Source: a virus
Lineage: Duplodnaviria > Heunggongvirae > Uroviricota > Caudoviricetes
Virus record (IMG/VR): IMGVR_UViG_2698536657_000013
Location: 1-5,110 of that record
DNA: 5,110 nucleotides
Reading direction: 5' to 3' (one strand)
Shown: in pieces, positions 1 through 5,110 of the stretch
Layout of the letters: each line of letters starts with the position of its first letter
Numbering within the stretch: the stretch's first letter is position 1
Made by a program: the position numbers and the translations under genes
The notes under the pieces: generated by a model
What the model saw: the letters and a program-made list of their open reading frames with translations, nothing else
Databases searched by the model: none
Told to the model about the DNA's origin: nothing

Positions 1-485
1 AGGAAATATCAAAAGTTCTTATGAATGTGGCCATTGTCAACGGCATTAAGATGGCCGCAAACAGTATGTCCGGTGCAGGAGGATTTTTCGGCAGTATAGG
101 CAACTGGCTGGGTGGCGCGGTGGCAAATGCAAAAGGCGGCGTTTATACCTCGGCAAACCTGAGTGCATACAGTAACAGTATTGTGGACACGCCCACGTAC
201 TTTGCCTTTGCAAAAGGGGCAGGGCTGATGGGGGAAGCCGGACCTGAAGCCATCATGCCCCTGACCCGGGCAGCGGATGGTTCACTCGGCGTGCGTGCGG
301 TGGGCAGTATGAACGGCAGTGCGGGTCTGGTGTATTCCCCGGTGTACCACATTGCCATTCAGAATGACGGCGCTAACGGGCAGATAGGGCCGGAAGCGGT
401 GGGCACCCTTGTGCAACTGATTGACCAGCGGGTACAGGCGGTGATGTTATCCATGCGTCGTGACGGAGGAATGCTGAGTGGATGA
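1..485 (+). CDS. Tail tape-measure protein (lambda gpH-like), C-terminal part; 5' end lies outside the window (codon_start 3)
   Basis: Frame 3 is open from the window edge (no in-frame stop before the listed ATG at 21) to TGA at 483-485. Gly/Ala/Ser-rich C-terminal sequence. Stop overlaps the GTG start of the M homolog by 8 nt, as expected for H-M in lambdoid tail operons. Confidence 0.75.
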   Translation, partial: EISKVLMNVAIVNGIKMAANSMSGAGGFFGSIGNWLGGAVANAKGGVYTSANLSAYSNSIVDTPTYFAFAKGAGLMGEAGPEAIMPLTRAADGSLGVRAVGSMNGSAGLVYSPVYHIAIQNDGANGQIGPEAVGTLVQLIDQRVQAVMLSMRRDGGMLSG

Positions 486-819
486 GATTAAGACCCTTCA
501 CTGGTGTCCCCGGGAAGGGATGCAGGTGACGGAGAAACCGTCGGTGGTGACGGTGAAGTTTGGCGACGGTTATCAGCAACGTCGTCCGGCAGGACTGAAT
601 GCGCAACTGAAGACCTTTCAGGTGGTTTTTCGGGTGACAACGGATGCTGAGCGGGAGGCACTGTCCGCGTTTCTGTCATGGCATGGTGGTTACCGGGCTT
701 TTTTGTGGAAGCCCCCGAAACATAACCGGACGGTCAGGGTGGTGTGCCGGGAGTGGAGTATTACGGATAACGCCCGGTACAGTGATTTCAGTTGCACGAT
801 AGAGCAGGTAGTCAGATGA
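478..819 (+). CDS. Minor tail protein M (lambda gpM-like)
   Basis: 113-aa ORF with GTG start at 478, preceded by GGAGGA (464-469). Product shows gpM-like blocks (VKFGDGYQQRRPAGLNA, HGGYRAFLWKPP) as recalled from the family. Lies between the tape-measure and L homologs. Confidence 0.85.
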   Translation: MDEIKTLHWCPREGMQVTEKPSVVTVKFGDGYQQRRPAGLNAQLKTFQVVFRVTTDAEREALSAFLSWHGGYRAFLWKPPKHNRTVRVVCREWSITDNARYSDFSCTIEQVVR

Positions 820-839
820 GAATTATCCTATAAATCACT

Positions 840-1017
840 CTTTATTGTTTAGTTGTTAATTATTTTTAATCTGTCTTGTCAGAAAGTGCGAAATCGATCT
901 TGTATTTACATTTTGTTACATAATATAAATTGAACTAAGAATTTGTATTAAAATATTTTAATTTTTGTTCATGACATCTGAATGCATGAATAGTTCAGTT
1001 TAAATAAGGATTAAATC
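840..1017 (+). promoter_or_regulatory. AT-rich upstream region of the porin moron; candidate sigma70 promoter and RBS
   Basis: Intergenic stretch after the M stop (817-819) is strikingly AT-rich compared with the GC-rich tail genes. One candidate promoter is TTGTAT (900-905), 18 bp spacer, TATAAA (924-929). SD AAGGA at 1006-1010 lies 7 nt before ATG 1018. The exact promoter cannot be fixed from sequence alone. Confidence 0.35.
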
Positions 1018-2172
1018 ATGAAAAAAACGACAGTGGCACTTTCTGCTGTAGCAGTGGCAGTGATGTTTGCTGCGGGGGTGCAGGCAGCAGAAGTTTATAA
1101 TAAAGATGGTAATAAACTGGATCTTTACGGGCGTGTAACCGCTCTGCATTACTTCTCGGATGATAAAGGTAATGACGGAGACCAGACTTATGCTCGTCTC
1201 GGCTTTAAAGGCGAAACGCAGATTAATGATCAACTGACCGGATTTGGTCAGTGGGAATACCAGTTCTCTGGTAACAAAACGGAATCTGAAGGTTCCGCGG
1301 GAAATAAAACCCGTCTGGCATTTGCAGGTCTGAGATTTGCAGATGTTGGTACCATTGATTACGGACGTAACTATGGTATTGCTTATGATGTCGGATCATA
1401 TACTGACGTACTGCCTGAGTTTGGTGGTGATGGCTGGACGCAGACCGATAACTTTATGACGGCCCGAACTTCCGGTGTCCTGACTTACCGTAATACAGAC
1501 TTCTTCGGGCTGGTTGATGGTCTGAATTTTGCGGCGCAGTATCAGGGCAAAAATGAGCGTGATGACCTTCAGAAGGCTAATGGCGACGGGTATGGTTTCT
1601 CGGCCAGCTATGAGTTTGATGGTTTTGGTTTTGTCGCTGCGTATACCAAGTCAGATCGTACCGATAAGCAGGTTCAGGGGTTGAACGGTACTGCAGATGT
1701 TCTTGATCCTGAATCAGGTAAAAAGGTTGGAGAAAAAACAGTTGACTCAGGTAGTGTGGCAAAAGGTAAACATGCTGAATTCTGGGGAACTGGTCTTAAA
1801 TATGATGCCAATAACCTGTATCTGGCAGCAGTGTATTCTGAAACCCAGAATATGACGACCTTTGGTGATCAAGGTGTTGCGGATAAAGCTCAGAATATCG
1901 AAGCCGTTGTTCAGTATCAGTTTGATTTTGGTCTGCGCCCGTCCCTTGCCTACCTTCAGTCCCGCGGACAGGATGTTATGGTTGGTGGTGTGAACCATGG
2001 CGATCAGGATCTGGTTAAATATATTGATGTCGGTGCGACTTATTACTTTAACAAGAATATGTCCACCTATGTTGATTATAAAATTAACCTGATTGATGAA
2101 AGTGAATTTACCCGGAAAGCCGGTGTTGCGACAGATAATATCGTTGCTGTGGGTATGACTTATCAGTTCTGA
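1018..2172 (+). CDS. Outer-membrane general porin, OmpC/OmpF/PhoE family (prophage-borne NmpC/Lc-like lysogenic-conversion porin)
   Basis: 384-aa ORF. Signal peptide [23 protein letters not shown] followed by mature N-terminus [16 protein letters not shown]. Porin hallmark blocks: [109 protein letters not shown]. Ends in ...YQF, the beta-barrel C-terminal aromatic. Codon and base composition are more AT-rich than the flanking tail genes. Confidence 0.95.
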
Positions 2173-2198
2173 TTATTGCTGATAAGTTAATAAATACG

Positions 2199-2250
2199 GG
2201 CCGTCTGCCCTTACAGGCGGCCTGTATCAATGAAAACACAGTTTTCATTG
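2199..2250 (+). other. Two adjacent stem-loops in the porin 3' flank (RNA stability or protein-binding elements)
   Basis: Hairpin 1 at 2199-2222: GCCGTCTG / CAGGCGGC, 8 bp with one G-U pair and a 6-nt loop. Hairpin 2 at 2228-2250: perfect 10-bp inverted repeat CAATGAAAAC-aca-GTTTTCATTG. Neither is followed by a clear T-tract. Confidence 0.3.
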
Positions 2251-2345
2251 GTCACTGCGATCAGCAATTGCCATCTGGCATGTGCTGATTTAACTTTCTG
2301 TTATTACCTTTATTGGTTTTATTTTAAATTGGACTTTTATTGTTC

Positions 2346-2369
2346 GGGGCGCGTCTGCGCCCCTTTTTT
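2346..2369 (+). terminator. Rho-independent terminator ending the porin moron transcript, 12 nt upstream of L
   Basis: GGGGCGC (2346-2352), loop GTCT, GCGCCCC (2357-2363), followed by TTTTTT (2364-2369). Perfect 7-bp GC stem plus T-run. Confidence 0.7.
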
Positions 2370-2381
2370 ATGGGCGGATAT

Positions 2382-3080
2382 ATGCAGGATATTCACGAAG
2401 AAAGCCTGAACGAGTCGGTTAAGTCAGAGCAGTCACCGCGGGTGGTGCTCTGGGAAATCGACCTGACGGTGCAGGGCGGTGAGCGGTATTTTTTCTGCAA
2501 TGAGCTGAATGAAAAAGGGGAGCCGGTGACCTGGCAGGGGCGTGAATATCAGGCGTACCCGATTGAGGGCAGCGGCTTTGAGATGAACGGAAAGGGCAGC
2601 AGTGCCCGCCCGTCGCTGACGGTGTCCAATCTTTTCGGGCTGGTCACCGGGATGGCGGAGGATTTGCAGAGCCTGGTGGGTGCCACGGTGGTCCGCCGCC
2701 GGGTGTATGCGCGTTTTCTGGATGCGGTGAATTTTGTGGCAGGGAATCCTGAGGCAGACCCTGAGCAGGAGCTGACGGACCGGTGGGTGGTGGAGCAGAT
2801 GTCATCGCTGACGGCCATGACGGCCTCGTTTGTGCTGGCGACACCGACGGAGACGGACGGTGCGTTGTTTCCCGGTCGCATCATGCTGGCGAACACCTGT
2901 ATGTGGGATTACCGGGGCGATGAGTGCGGGTATAACGGTCCGGCAGTGGCGGATGAGTTCGACAACCCCACCACGGATATCCGGAAGGACAGATGCAGTA
3001 AATGCATGCGCGGGTGTGAGATGCGCGGCATGGTGGCTAATTTTGGCGGTTTCCTTTCCATCAATAAACTTTCGCAGTAA
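2382..3080 (+). CDS. Tail tip protein L (lambda gpL-like)
   Basis: ATG at 2382 (MQDIHEESLNE...). The ORF-track start at 2340 is a TTG inside the terminator hairpin and is unlikely. gpL-like blocks: VVLWEIDLT, GGERYFFCNELNEKGEPVTWQG, GKGSSARPSLTVSNLFG, FPGRIMLANTC, FGGFLSINKLSQ. C-terminal Cys cluster present. Stop TAA at 3078-3080. Confidence 0.9.
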   Translation: MQDIHEESLNESVKSEQSPRVVLWEIDLTVQGGERYFFCNELNEKGEPVTWQGREYQAYPIEGSGFEMNGKGSSARPSLTVSNLFGLVTGMAEDLQSLVGATVVRRRVYARFLDAVNFVAGNPEADPEQELTDRWVVEQMSSLTAMTASFVLATPTETDGALFPGRIMLANTCMWDYRGDECGYNGPAVADEFDNPTTDIRKDRCSKCMRGCEMRGMVANFGGFLSINKLSQ

Positions 3081-3090
3081 ATCCCGTTTT

Positions 3091-3834
3091 ATGACACAGA
3101 CTGAATCAGCGATTCTGGCGCATGCCCGGCGGTGTGCGCCAGCGGAGTCGTGCGGCTTCGTGATAAGCACCCCGGAGGGCGAACGGTACCAGCCCTGCGT
3201 GAATATCTCCGCAGAGCCGGAGGCGTATTTTCGTATTGCACCGGAAGACTGGCTGCAGGCACAGATGCAGGGGGAGATTATGGCGCTGGTCCACAGTCAT
3301 CCCGGTGGTCTGCCCTGGCTGAGCGAGGCTGACCGGCGGCTGCAGATAAAGAGTGCCCTGCCCTGGTGGCTGGTCTGCCGGGGCGACATTCACCGGTTCC
3401 GCTGTGTGCCGCACCTGACCGGACGGCGCTTTGAACACGGTGTGACGGACTGTTACAGCCTGTTCCGGGATGCATACCATCTGGCGGGGATAACGCTGCC
3501 GGATTTTGTGCGTGAGGATGACTGGTGGCGCAACGGCCAGAACCTGTACCTGGACAACCTGGCGGACAACGGCTTTTACCGGGTGTCTCCGTCCTGTGCA
3601 CAGGCGGGCGATATCCTGCTGTGCTGCTTTGGTTCATCGGTGCCGAATCATGCCGCCATTTACTGTGGCAACGGTGAACTGCTTCACCATATACCTGAAC
3701 AACTGAGTAAACGGGAGAGGTATTCTGAAAAATGGCAACGACGAACGCATTCTGTCTGGCGTCACCGCCACTGGTCCGTATCTGCCTTCACGGGGATTTA
3801 CAACGATTTGGTCGCCGCATCAGCCTGTATGTGA
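3091..3834 (+). CDS. Tail tip assembly protein K (lambda gpK-like); JAB/MPN (JAMM) metalloprotease-like domain plus NlpC/P60 domain
   Basis: ATG at 3091 (MTQTESAILAHARR...), 11 nt after the L stop. The ORF-track start at 2830 overlaps L in another frame and is rejected. JAMM motif HSHPGGLPWLSEAD (H-x-H-x7-S-x2-D) starts at nt 3292. NlpC/P60-like Cys (GVTDCYSLF) and His (VPNHAAIY). Overlaps the I gene by 103 nt as in lambda. Start is uncertain: lambda's own K annotation is shorter, so a later start is possible. Confidence 0.85.
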   Translation: MTQTESAILAHARRCAPAESCGFVISTPEGERYQPCVNISAEPEAYFRIAPEDWLQAQMQGEIMALVHSHPGGLPWLSEADRRLQIKSALPWWLVCRGDIHRFRCVPHLTGRRFEHGVTDCYSLFRDAYHLAGITLPDFVREDDWWRNGQNLYLDNLADNGFYRVSPSCAQAGDILLCCFGSSVPNHAAIYCGNGELLHHIPEQLSKRERYSEKWQRRTHSVWRHRHWSVSAFTGIYNDLVAASACM

Positions 3835-4412
3835 ACACGGCAGCGGAGGCCATCCGTGCCCTGTCGCTGCAGGTGCCGGGATTCCGCGGTCAGATGAACG
3901 AAGGCTGGTATCAGATACGTATTGCCGGTGAGGATACCGCGCCGGAGGCGGTGTATGCCCGTCTTCATGAGCCACTGAGCGGGAGGGCCGTGATTCATAT
4001 TGTACCGCGGCTGGCCGGAGCCGGGGGAAATGGTGTTTTTCAGGTGGTGCTGGGGGTTGCAGCGATTGTCGGGTCATTTTTCACTGGTGGTGCAACACTG
4101 GCGGCATGGGGCGCAGCCCTGAGTGCCGGAGGGCTGACTGCCACCACGATGCTGTTCTCACTGGGTGCCAGCATGATACTGGGTGGTGTGGCTCAGATGC
4201 TGGCCCCGAAGGCAAAGACGCCGGAGTATAAAAGTACGGATAACGGTAAACAGAACACGTATTTTTCGTCACTGGACAACATGATTGCCCAGGGTAACCC
4301 GATGCCGGTGCCTTACGGTGAAATGCTGGTTGGTTCACGACGGATATCCCAGGATATCAGCACCCGTGATGAGGGCGGAGACGGGAAAGTGGTGGTTATC
4401 GGGCGGGGATAA
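3732..4412 (+). CDS. Tail assembly protein I (lambda gpI-like; N-terminal ubiquitin-like beta-grasp domain)
   Basis: 226-aa ORF MATTNAFCLASPPLVRICLHGDLQRFGRRI... with gpI-like blocks (YQIRIAG, VIHIVPR.AGA, Gly/Ala-rich hydrophobic segment, GKQNTYFSSLDNM.AQGN, YGEM.VGSR). Starts inside the 3' end of K. Stop TAA at 4410-4412. Confidence 0.9.
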   Translation: MATTNAFCLASPPLVRICLHGDLQRFGRRISLYVNTAAEAIRALSLQVPGFRGQMNEGWYQIRIAGEDTAPEAVYARLHEPLSGRAVIHIVPRLAGAGGNGVFQVVLGVAAIVGSFFTGGATLAAWGAALSAGGLTATTMLFSLGASMILGGVAQMLAPKAKTPEYKSTDNGKQNTYFSSLDNMIAQGNPMPVPYGEMLVGSRRISQDISTRDEGGDGKVVVIGRG

Positions 4413-4451
4413 AAATAAAAAAAATCCCGCAGAGTTAGTGGAGCTGCGGGA
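4411..4451 (-). terminator. Rho-independent terminator, minus strand (cassette A)
   Basis: Read on the minus strand: stem TCCCGCAG / CTGCGGGA (4425-4451, 8 bp, 11-nt loop) followed by a U-run (plus-strand A-tract 4411-4424). The U-run abuts the stop codon of I, so it is convergent with the tail operon. Confidence 0.6.
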
Positions 4452-4509
4452 AATAACGATGAAGATTAATGTTATGGAGTTATTTTTTTGGGCAGAAAAA
4501 CATTAACGC
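4411..4509 (-). ncRNA. Putative small RNA, cassette A (about 100 nt, minus strand)
   Basis: Bounded by minus-strand -10 TATAAT (plus coordinates 4516-4521) and the terminator at 4411-4451. No convincing ORF with an RBS. Body contains A-rich runs and the pyrimidine motif AACUCC. Ends with a U-tail. Start is estimated, not mapped. Confidence 0.3.
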
Positions 4510-4542
4510 AGCGAAATTATAAGCGCTACATGGATTTTGCGA

Positions 4543-4564
4543 AAATGTGAAGAAATTCAGAAAT
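4543..4564. promoter_or_regulatory. CRP-like box (AAATGTGA-agaaat-TCAGAaat) upstream of the minus-strand -10 of cassette A
   Basis: Matches the CRP consensus AAATGTGA-N6-TCACATTT with one half-site mismatch (TCAGA). The 5' T of TGTGA is 25 bp from the minus-strand TATAAT, placing the site centre roughly 41-45 bp upstream of the predicted start (class II-like). Confidence 0.35.
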
Positions 4565-4640
4565 TTTTTGCTGCAGAGGTGCAGGGAGCTTGCCGGGTAT
4601 CTGTGGCAGAAGACAGAAAACATCATGCCGGGGTTAAGGG

Positions 4641-4676
4641 ATAAAAAAATCCCGCAGAGTTAGCGGAGCTGCGGGA
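4641..4676 (-). terminator. Rho-independent terminator, minus strand (cassette B)
   Basis: Same 8-bp stem (4650-4657 / 4669-4676) followed on the minus strand by 7 U (plus-strand A-run 4643-4649). Confidence 0.6.
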
Positions 4677-4740
4677 CAGAACCGATGAAGATTAACGTTC
4701 AAGGAGTTTTGTTTTTATTGACCCGAAAAAACTGTAACGC
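4641..4740 (-). ncRNA. Putative small RNA, cassette B (about 100 nt, minus strand)
   Basis: Bounded by minus-strand -10 TATCAT (4747-4752) and the terminator at 4641-4676. Body shares AACUCCUUGAACGUUAAUCUUCAUCG with cassette A. Confidence 0.3.
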
Positions 4741-4773
4741 CCCGGAATGATATCTGCCATGGGGACGCACAGG

Positions 4774-4795
4774 AAATGTGAAGAAATTCAGACTT
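4774..4795. promoter_or_regulatory. CRP-like box, cassette B
   Basis: AAATGTGA-agaaat-TCAGActt. Same 25-bp offset to minus-strand TATCAT (4747-4752). Confidence 0.35.
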
Positions 4796-4877
4796 TTTCT
4801 GTCGCAGGTTTACAGAACGGATTACCGCCGGGGTACCAGTGGCGTAAATGAGCCGGATGTTGTGGTGCGGCTGAAGC

Positions 4878-4917
4878 AAAAAAATCTCCCGTAATATCGC
4901 CGGATACTGACGGGAGA
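4878..4917 (-). terminator. Rho-independent terminator, minus strand (cassette C)
   Basis: Stem TCTCCCGT / ACGGGAGA (4885-4892 / 4910-4917) followed on the minus strand by 7 U (plus-strand A-run 4878-4884). Sequence differs from A and B but pairing is fully preserved. Confidence 0.55.
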
Positions 4918-4980
4918 CGAATAGTCACCTTAAGGAGGTCTGATAATTATTGCTTTTATTGAGCAAAAAAACTGTAACGC
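4878..4980 (-). ncRNA. Putative small RNA, cassette C (about 100 nt, minus strand)
   Basis: Bounded by minus-strand -10 TATAAT (4987-4992) and the terminator at 4878-4917. Body contains ACCUCCUUA, identical to the 16S rRNA anti-Shine-Dalgarno sequence. Confidence 0.3.
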
Positions 4981-5013
4981 TGCATCATTATAGCGGCTAC
5001 AGGCAATTGCCGG

Positions 5014-5035
5014 AAATGTGAAGAATTTCAGAAAT
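5014..5035. promoter_or_regulatory. CRP-like box, cassette C
   Basis: AAATGTGA-agaatt-TCAGAaat. Same 25-bp offset to minus-strand TATAAT (4987-4992). Confidence 0.35.
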
Positions 5036-5051
5036 TTTATTCCGTCATGAC

Positions 5052-5083
5052 ACAGGCACCCTCCGGGGTGCCTGTCGTTTTCT
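5052..5083 (+). terminator. Rho-independent terminator, plus strand
   Basis: ACAGGCACCC (5052-5061), loop TCCG, GGGTGCCTGT (5066-5075), then cgTTTTcT (5076-5083). Perfect 10-bp stem. The T-run is modest (4 T). Confidence 0.5.
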
Positions 5084-5110
5084 GGCATAAACAGATTCAG
5101 ACATCAGACA

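Follow-up and report, generated by a model that had tools for sequence, protein, structure and literature searches.

Three tandem units of the PasB/EcOnc22 type between tail genes I and J of a lambdoid Escherichia coli prophage

Organization of the I-J gap

The window analyzed in this work is a stretch of 5,110 nucleotides (nt) of viral DNA (IMG/VR record IMGVR_UViG_2698536657_000013, positions 1 to 5,110), which according to its open reading frames (ORFs) and its best genome match is the tail region of a lambdoid, Shiga toxin phage-like prophage of Escherichia coli. We focus on 4413-5110, the gap that separates tail gene I from tail gene J, and on three hairpins, A, B and C, all of which sit within it. 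The best database match, the chromosome of E. coli FHI_NMBU_11 (NZ_CP045712), is 99.6% identical over 4380-5110, and its annotation lists in order tail assembly protein I, an unannotated gap of 713 nt and gpJ. We consider it probable (about 0.85) that the I-J gap comprises three tandem, independently transcribed small RNA (sRNA) genes of the PasB/EcOnc22 type, antisense to the tail operon, with the hairpins serving as their terminators.

The gap is made up of three tandem direct repeats of ~230 base pairs (bp), spaced 225-240 bp apart, which read antisense to the tail operon in the minus-strand order C, B, A. Each unit contains, in minus-strand order, the motif TCTGAA(T/A)TTCTTCACATTT, followed ~24 nt on by TATAAT or TATCAT, then by GCGTTA(A/C)(T/A)GT with a run of T, a body of ~60 nt and finally the hairpin with its U-tract (Table 1). 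What lies upstream of the J-proximal unit, with the GC-rich hairpin at 5052-5075, recurs in degenerate form in the spacers between the units; this hairpin belongs to the ancestral ~230-bp unit and is degenerate in the internal copies. Since the spacers resemble the J-proximal upstream sequence, the entire unit was duplicated in tandem; the array would have originated by duplication of this ~230-bp unit followed by divergence. The 5052-5075 hairpin itself is kept upstream of the J-proximal unit in most of the loci collected in this work, with a compensatory C-G to T-A change (GGCAC..GTGCC vs GGCAT..ATGCC) and mismatched intermediates, and may mark the end of non-antiterminated plus-strand transcripts or an RNA end.

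The strand on which the hairpins act is indicated by their flanks. On the plus strand, runs of A8 (4417-4424), A7 (4643-4649) and A7 (4878-4884) lie immediately 5' of hairpins A, B and C, respectively, so that on the minus strand each hairpin is followed by a U-tract of seven or eight residues. The stems measure 8-9 bp, with six G-C pairs in A and B and five in C, and only on the minus strand does a U-tract (U8, U7 and U7, respectively) come directly after them. A search of the window for perfect 8-bp stems with loops of 3-20 nt and at least six T within 2 nt returned exactly three matches, all on the minus strand and identical with hairpins A, B and C, where the mean of 2000 dinucleotide shuffles was 0.004 per window and 0.001 per 4413-5110; chance palindromes are thereby ruled out. 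A consensus terminator scan also picked hairpin B on the minus strand (4667-4651), and minus-strand folding kept the terminal hairpin in both the minimum-free-energy and the centroid structures. A sequence-only reading of this DNA had described three 8-bp hairpins with an adjacent A/T run, and we find them at 4425-4451, 4650-4676 and 4885-4917. The adjacency of the run was seen correctly in that reading, although it did not recognize that only on the minus strand does the T-run lie 3' of the hairpin. Its view that the hairpins are functional terminators and not chance palindromes is supported by their orientation, by the homology to PasB and EcOnc sRNAs, by the conserved stem and by the shuffles. 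The minus-strand U-tract, the homology to detected sRNAs and a near-invariant stem with freely varying loops are the grounds on which we regard all three as functional transcription terminators.

Relationship to PasB and EcOnc22-24

PasB of enteropathogenic E. coli E2348/69 is an RNA of 83 nt encoded on the minus strand of NC_011601.1 (1466343-1466261) in prophage PP6; it has been validated by Northern blotting, depends strongly on Hfq (log2 fold change of -6.8 in an hfq deletion) and has 37 partners in RIL-seq (ligation and sequencing of interacting RNAs) (Pearl Mizrahi et al. 2021, PMC8550237). In the RefSeq annotation the PasB interval corresponds to the gap that has a tail assembly protein (1465674-1466255) on one side and gpJ (from 1466496 on) on the other, with PasB antisense to the two, and the architecture of this locus is that of the window units. 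The 3' end of PasB defined by RNA-seq (NC_011601 1466261) is the last T of the U7 that follows a CCCGCAG/CTGCGGG hairpin. PasB thus shares with the window its place in the I-J gap of a lambdoid prophage and its antisense orientation, as well as the upstream motif, the TATAAT, the GCGTTA...T-run, the AAUCUUC core and the CCCGCAG/CUGCGGG-U7 terminator. It differs in that the window has three copies at the spacing given above, one of them with another seed region. With the 83-nt PasB as query, blastn found A at 80% and B at 82% identity, and C was not found.

EcOnc22, EcOnc23 and EcOnc24 are homologous peaks of Hfq cross-linking and analysis of cDNA (CRAC) in prophages Sp15, Sp14 and Sp11 of E. 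coli O157:H7 Sakai (Tree et al. 2014, PMC4104026, Table S2), and EcOnc22 is ~85 nt long on Northern blots and destabilized without Hfq (PMC4104026). At a constant offset, each of the three peaks falls in the I-J gap of its prophage, antisense to the tail genes. Every one of these gaps holds a single unit, almost identical to window unit A (~94% by eye for the Sp15 copy), the difference from the window being the single unit per prophage; EcOnc22-24 are without a published function or target. The Sakai peak coordinates come from an older genome version, and AgvB, located by Rfam in NC_002695.2, shows a shift of about +137 to +146 nt. With this AgvB-derived shift the EcOnc peaks coincide with the sRNA body. 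For these homologues RNAs of ~83-85 nt, Hfq binding and dependence, and a 3' end at the U-tract are documented in the literature (PMC8550237; PMC4104026).

The homology extends to all three units. An nhmmer profile of 59 family members, compiled from sequence only and with none from the window and none of the C type, matched the window over the full model length at A (4512-4418, E=3.4e-23), B (4741-4643, E=1.2e-22) and C (4982-4881, E=5.9e-7). The presumed seed UUAAUCUUC, just upstream of the terminator, is present in A and B. C carries AAGGUGACUAUUCGU instead and is for this reason a diverged paralogue and not a PasB orthologue. Judged by sequence, A and B are members of the PasB/EcOnc22 family, and C is a diverged paralogue with a different presumed seed.

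Several observations weigh against the interpretation of the gap as three sRNA genes. Expression has been recorded for homologues, the assignment of the I-J array itself being by sequence comparison. The CRAC peak probably lies on the sRNA body and not on the upstream part of the gap, the shift having been calibrated at 1.94 Mb only and the peak being near 2.9 Mb. A scan of the window with the Rfam covariance models (E up to 1) matched no family. The -35 elements of the internal promoters of B and C are weak, and the conserved TATAAT implies a start ~15 nt upstream of the published PasB 5' end, which leaves the start ambiguous. The loops (11 nt in A and B, 17 nt in C) exceed that typical of intrinsic terminators (3-8 nt); an inner helix in C cuts the effective loop to 4 nt, and the loops of homologues measure 4-16 nt.

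Other prophage sRNAs provide a further comparison. AgvB, AsxR and other sRNAs of prophage "morons" (Tree et al. 2014, PMC4104026; RF02702, RF02703) are likewise prophage-encoded, Hfq-bound and short, their 3' terminator module being conserved and their 5' pairing region variable. However, they are located downstream of PR', differ in sequence and measure 51-60 nt, and an AgvB/AsxR-type anti-sRNA identity for the window cassettes was rejected on locus and sequence. The Rfam prophage sRNA families (AgvB, AsxR, Esr41, STnc100 and others) gave no match in the window, while the same scan does detect AgvB at its Sakai locus, the only match obtained in the Sakai and E2348/69-type loci.

Table 1 Features of the window and their coordinates
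Feature	Position	Strand	Description
Hairpin A	4425-4432/4444-4451		arms TCCCGCAG/CTGCGGGA; perfect 8 bp, 11-nt loop
Hairpin B	4650-4657/4669-4676		arms identical to A, TCCCGCAG/CTGCGGGA; perfect 8 bp, 11-nt loop
Hairpin C	4885-4892/4910-4917		arms TCTCCCGT/ACGGGAGA; perfect 8 bp, 17-nt loop
Terminator A	4417-4451	-	stem UCCCGCAG/CUGCGGGA, 11-nt loop, U8 (4417-4424); 5 nt past gene I stop (4410-4412)
sRNA unit A, PasB/EcOnc22-type	4417-4509	-	3' end ~4417; presumed seed UUAAUCUUCAU ~4459-4469
Promoter region A	4516-4561	-	-10 TATAAT 4516-4521; -35-like TTCGCA 4538-4543, 16-nt spacer; motif TCTGAATTTCTTCACATTT 4543-4561
Terminator B	4643-4676	-	stem UCCCGCAG/CUGCGGGA, 9 bp counting flanking G-C; 11-nt loop; U7 (4643-4649)
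sRNA unit B, PasB-type	4643-4740	-	5' end ~4726 (PasB homology) or ~4740 (from TATCAT)
Promoter region B	4747-4792	-	-10 TATCAT 4747-4752; motif TCTGAATTTCTTCACATTT 4774-4792
Terminator C	4878-4917	-	outer stem UCUCCCGU/ACGGGAGA; inner helix AGUAUC/GAUAUU in 17-nt loop; U7 (4878-4884)
sRNA unit C, diverged paralogue	4878-4980	-	core AAGGUGACUAUUCGU in place of PasB-type UUAAUCUUCAU; 5' end ~4965 or ~4980 (from TATAAT)
Promoter region C	4987-5032	-	-10 TATAAT 4987-4992; motif TCTGAAATTCTTCACATTT 5014-5032
GC-rich hairpin	5052-5075	+ (tail-operon strand)	10 bp, then CGTTTTCT; just upstream of J
Tape-measure gene, 3' end			
Gene M	478-819		
OmpC-like porin gene	1018-2172		
Gene L	2340-3080		
Gene K			
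Gene I	3732-4412		

Conservation of the terminator stem and alternative explanations

Homologous units were gathered from IMG/VR with the promoter motif as the key, which is independent of the terminator, from species-representative genomes and, by a search with the C body, from E. coli genomes. The collection comprises ~69 distinct units and 48 distinct terminator segments. Two discrete stem classes were found: (U)CCCGCAG/CUGCGGG(A), with very varied loops of 4-16 nt, and CUCCCG(U)/(A or G)CGGGAG in the C-type units. Across the ~48 segments the stem is nearly invariant and the loops vary freely. In three structure-blind alignments (MAFFT twice and the nhmmer profile) both classes align on a common core, 5'-TCCCG...CGGGA-3', in which five pairs are of identical sequence in A/B and C and the 8-bp stems are offset by 2 bp. 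The A/B and C hairpins would be homologous, C being a remodelled form built around this TCCCG/CGGGA core.

The C terminator could also have been gained as a module by recombination with another sRNA gene, its likeness to A and B being then that of any C-rich/G-rich stem. Such an origin would suit a family which is a mosaic, with promoter spacers, 5' parts, seeds and loops reassorted among the variants, and in which the two stem classes stand without intermediates. We nevertheless hold it to be unlikely, as the profile alignment spans the whole C unit including TCCCG-(t)-CAG...CGGGA, and C and A/B have the 5' arm and the beginning of the loop (CAG..UCCG) in common.

The sequence-only reading had proposed that all eight pairs were kept in cassette C by compensation; in its strict form this means that the A/B and C stems are homologous position for position and that several pairs have been swapped by compensatory double substitutions, which would prove structural selection. 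When the stems are compared ungapped from the U-tract, four of the eight pairs differ on both sides and all eight still pair, and the profile confirms that C is truly homologous to A/B. The register is nevertheless the one set by the TCCCG/CGGGA core in the structure-blind alignments, and no intermediates between the stem classes exist in the ungapped one. In the core register, the position immediately above the core is occupied by C-G in the PasB type, by U-A in window C and two other loci (L063, L173) and by U·G in four (L011, L027, L169, L170); this is a genuine compensatory change with wobble intermediates and the only pair changed on both sides between A/B and C. C owes its two additional bottom pairs to a change on the 3' side alone (GGGAUU to GGGAGA), the 5' strand UCUCCCG being the same as in the Sakai PasB-type copy, and it has lost the A-U and G-C pairs at the top of A/B, the inner helix being found there instead. 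With one pair covarying, two gained one-sidedly and two lost, the apparent compensation of eight pairs is mostly an effect of alignment register, which arose because the stems were compared ungapped from their ends, and a position-for-position homology is improbable.

The wider claim that covariation signals selection shrinks to one pair for A/B against C, whereas compensatory changes across the family are real but sparse: G-C to A-U in one locus (L016), U-A to C-G in another (L169) and C-G to U-A through U·G in the C-types. They were counted on a core-anchored alignment of 24 distinct stems. Three C-G pairs are invariant; one pair is G-C in 22 stems, A-U in one (L016) and broken in one (L079); another is U-A in 19 and C-G in one (L169); and a third is C-G in 18, U-A in three and U·G in three. 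The covariation score is 0.166 vs 0.102 in shuffles, none of 500 of which reached it, and slid controls scored lower; because the sequences are related, the score supports the structure without proving it. The sequence-only reading was exposed to homologues in which the stem is disrupted without compensation, and only isolated, decayed copies turned up. One (L079) has an uncompensated G to U change (T in DNA) in the stem, for which an alternative stem is possible, and in the other two, L052 and the C-type unit of L174 (GGGAGATTCTTTAC), the U-tract is interrupted. The outcome replaces a plausible but misleading covariation argument and connects the hairpins with the 3' ends of known, experimentally detected, Hfq-dependent prophage sRNAs.

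Two explanations place the function on the other strand. It is very improbable that the hairpins terminate or attenuate plus-strand transcription of the tail operon between I and J, or that they terminate in both directions: they do lie inside a plus-strand operon, and the separate hairpin at 5052-5075 is terminator-like on that strand, but their plus-strand 3' flanks (AAUAACG, CAGAACC and CGAAUAG) contain no U-tract, the terminator scans pick them up on the minus strand only, and plus-strand folding favours the hairpins less clearly than minus-strand folding. Least credible is that the cassettes encode small plus-strand proteins (MKINVMELFFWAEKH in A and MKINVQGVLFLLTRKNCNAPE in B; MKINV...) and that the hairpins are incidental, for although A and B both have ATGAAGATTAA(T/C)GTT, with short ORFs after it, many homologues have lost the ATG (sRNA-strand CAT to CGT or TGT, that is ACG or ACA on the plus strand), frames and lengths differ between A and B, an upstream Shine-Dalgarno sequence is lacking, and the conservation fits an sRNA seed (AAUCUUC) and not codons.

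Predicted regulation, distribution of the arrays and neighbouring genes

If the gap holds three sRNA genes, each unit would have its own sigma-70-type promoter, a transcript of ~80-100 nt and a Rho-independent terminator, and would constitute a self-contained "moron"-type sRNA gene. The hairpin and its U-tract would halt RNA polymerase before antisense entry into the next unit or into gene I, and transcription of unit A would terminate 5 nt before the gene I stop codon. In Hfq-dependent sRNAs the U-tail together with the terminator hairpin forms the binding site for the proximal face of Hfq, and hairpin and U-tail of the window units are most likely a 3' Hfq-binding module as well. This role is also assigned to the terminator of the Pas sRNAs by Zhu, Shabalina and Storz 2026 (bioRxiv 10.64898/2026.05.13.724894), who propose the single-stranded stretch just upstream of the terminator as the PasB seed and describe the function of these sRNAs as not yet elucidated. 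The RNAs of the window would most likely act as base-pairing regulators in trans through the single-stranded stretch 5' of the terminator, UUAAUCUUCAU in A/B and AAGGUGACUAUUCGU in C. We infer the expression of the three copies, the existence of their targets and the role of the upstream motif described below.

The promoter of unit A matches the sigma-70 consensus at 10 of 12 positions on the minus strand. The 5' end of the unit A transcript would be at ~4494 by homology to the published PasB 5' end, or at ~4509 if transcription starts 7 nt after TATAAT; a second conserved box further downstream, TAnnnT, agrees with the 5' end published for PasB. Base pairing is possible between the 5' segment GUUAAUGUU and AACAUUAAU, located just upstream of the seed (4500-4512 with 4462-4473, minus strand), and variants of the two seem to co-vary (UUAGUGU with ACAUUGA in PasB). 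This pairing would exist only if the start is the TATAAT-based site and not the published PasB 5' end.

Upstream of every unit lies a 19-nt motif, TCTGAAnnTCTTCACATTT (4543-4561, 4774-4792 and 5014-5032, minus strand), whose TCTGA-N6-TCACA matches the CRP consensus TGTGA-N6-TCACA at 9 of 10 core positions. It is also present in units found without the motif as key (L171, L173). The centre of the motif is at ~-44.5 from the TATAAT-based start and ~-60 from the published PasB 5' end, class II and class I CRP sites being centred at -41.5 and -61.5, respectively. PasB levels are higher in LB than in virulence-inducing medium, whereas Spf, which CRP represses, shows the reverse (PMC8550237); this pattern is compatible with activation by CRP, and the motif is a candidate CRP site, which is suggestive only. 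A LexA box (CTGT-N8-ACAG) at the conserved motif was rejected, the essential CAG being CAT, and TTCACA of the motif was ruled out as the -35 element for TATAAT by the 24-nt spacer.

Duplicated Hfq sRNA genes of the core genome, such as OmrA/OmrB, PrrF1/PrrF2 and Qrr1-5, have their own promoters and terminators, conserved 3' parts and partly diverged pairing regions. The window array resembles them in consisting of duplicated genes, each with its own promoter and terminator, but it lies inside a phage structural operon and varies from one to four units between prophages.

In 724 of 5426 complete E. coli genomes there are matches to parts of 4380-5110, the median being three places in each. The triple array, which strains FHI_NMBU_11, JNEC-KY174 and STEC1590 have, is present to 80% or more in 84 genomes, and the C-type body, never annotated, in 110, most of which are Shiga-toxin-producing and come from humans and cattle. 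Array types were counted in the collected loci, which are not a random sample: with P for PasB-type and C for C-type units, P alone was seen in 115 loci, C-P in seven, C-P-P in the window and a near-identical genome locus (L001), P-C-P-P in L063, L171 and L174, and C alone in L173. In L171 (322-1236) and L174 (323-1231) the I-J gaps of ~910 nt contain four tandem units in the order PasB-type, C-type, a third seed class with GGUUAGUCAACAUCGU and PasB-type, and L063 has the same order. There are thus at least three seed classes, UUAAUCUUC, AAGGUGACUAUUCGU in the C-types and GGUUAGUCAACAUCGU in the four-unit arrays.

It is a tentative proposal, which we rate at somewhat less than even, that the I-J gap is a dedicated slot for an expandable array of one to four Hfq-dependent sRNAs, built by tandem duplication and by swaps of seed and loop modules around a common promoter motif and terminator core. 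If so, one prophage could deliver co-regulated regulators with different targets. The published Pas survey reported PasB with few nucleotide differences, no tandem copies and no two copies nearer than 28 kb (Zhu et al., 10.64898/2026.05.13.724894); A and B, at 80-82% identity to PasB, would probably have escaped detection by that BLAST survey in a large database. Neither the hairpins themselves nor the sRNA family is new, while the arrays of two to four copies and the C-type paralogue appear to be undescribed. Arrays of divergent paralogues of this size occur in ~2% of the complete E. coli genomes, mostly Shiga-toxin-producing, and none of the array genes is annotated or in Rfam. The diversity of the PasB family is far above the picture given by the recent survey, which is relevant to sRNA evolution and to the biology of Shiga toxin phages.

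A scan of species-representative genome contigs with the promoter motif (18 specified bases) gave almost only chance matches outside the Enterobacteria, the true matches being Escherichia albertii and two evidently contaminated contigs. The latter, a 3.4-kb contig labelled Streptomyces flavalbus (L145) and a 546-bp contig labelled Asaia platycodi (L130), carry this E. coli prophage sequence and are almost certainly assembly contamination. The family appears to be confined to phages of Escherichia/Shigella, as published. In L058 and L130 an insertion interrupts the unit immediately behind the conserved motif; it begins with TGAACCGCCCCGGGAATCCTGGAGAC, encodes the start of a transposase-like ORF and is presumably the end of an IS629-like element of the IS3 family.

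In the genome locus identical to the window (L001), the tail-tip gene J just downstream of the window equivalent (6747-10221) is annotated as frameshifted, and a prophage with such a J could be defective yet may retain the sRNA array. Elsewhere in the tail operon, the OmpC-like porin gene (384 amino acids) is inserted between M and L (flanks 820-1017 and 2173-2370) and is named "porin OmpC" by the Prokaryotic Genome Annotation Pipeline (PGAP) in the matching genome. It has a promoter-like AT-rich leader and two terminator-like hairpins downstream (~2196-2226, and 2346-2363 with GGGGCGCGTCTGCGCCCC followed by T6), and is a second self-contained "moron" of the same tail operon.

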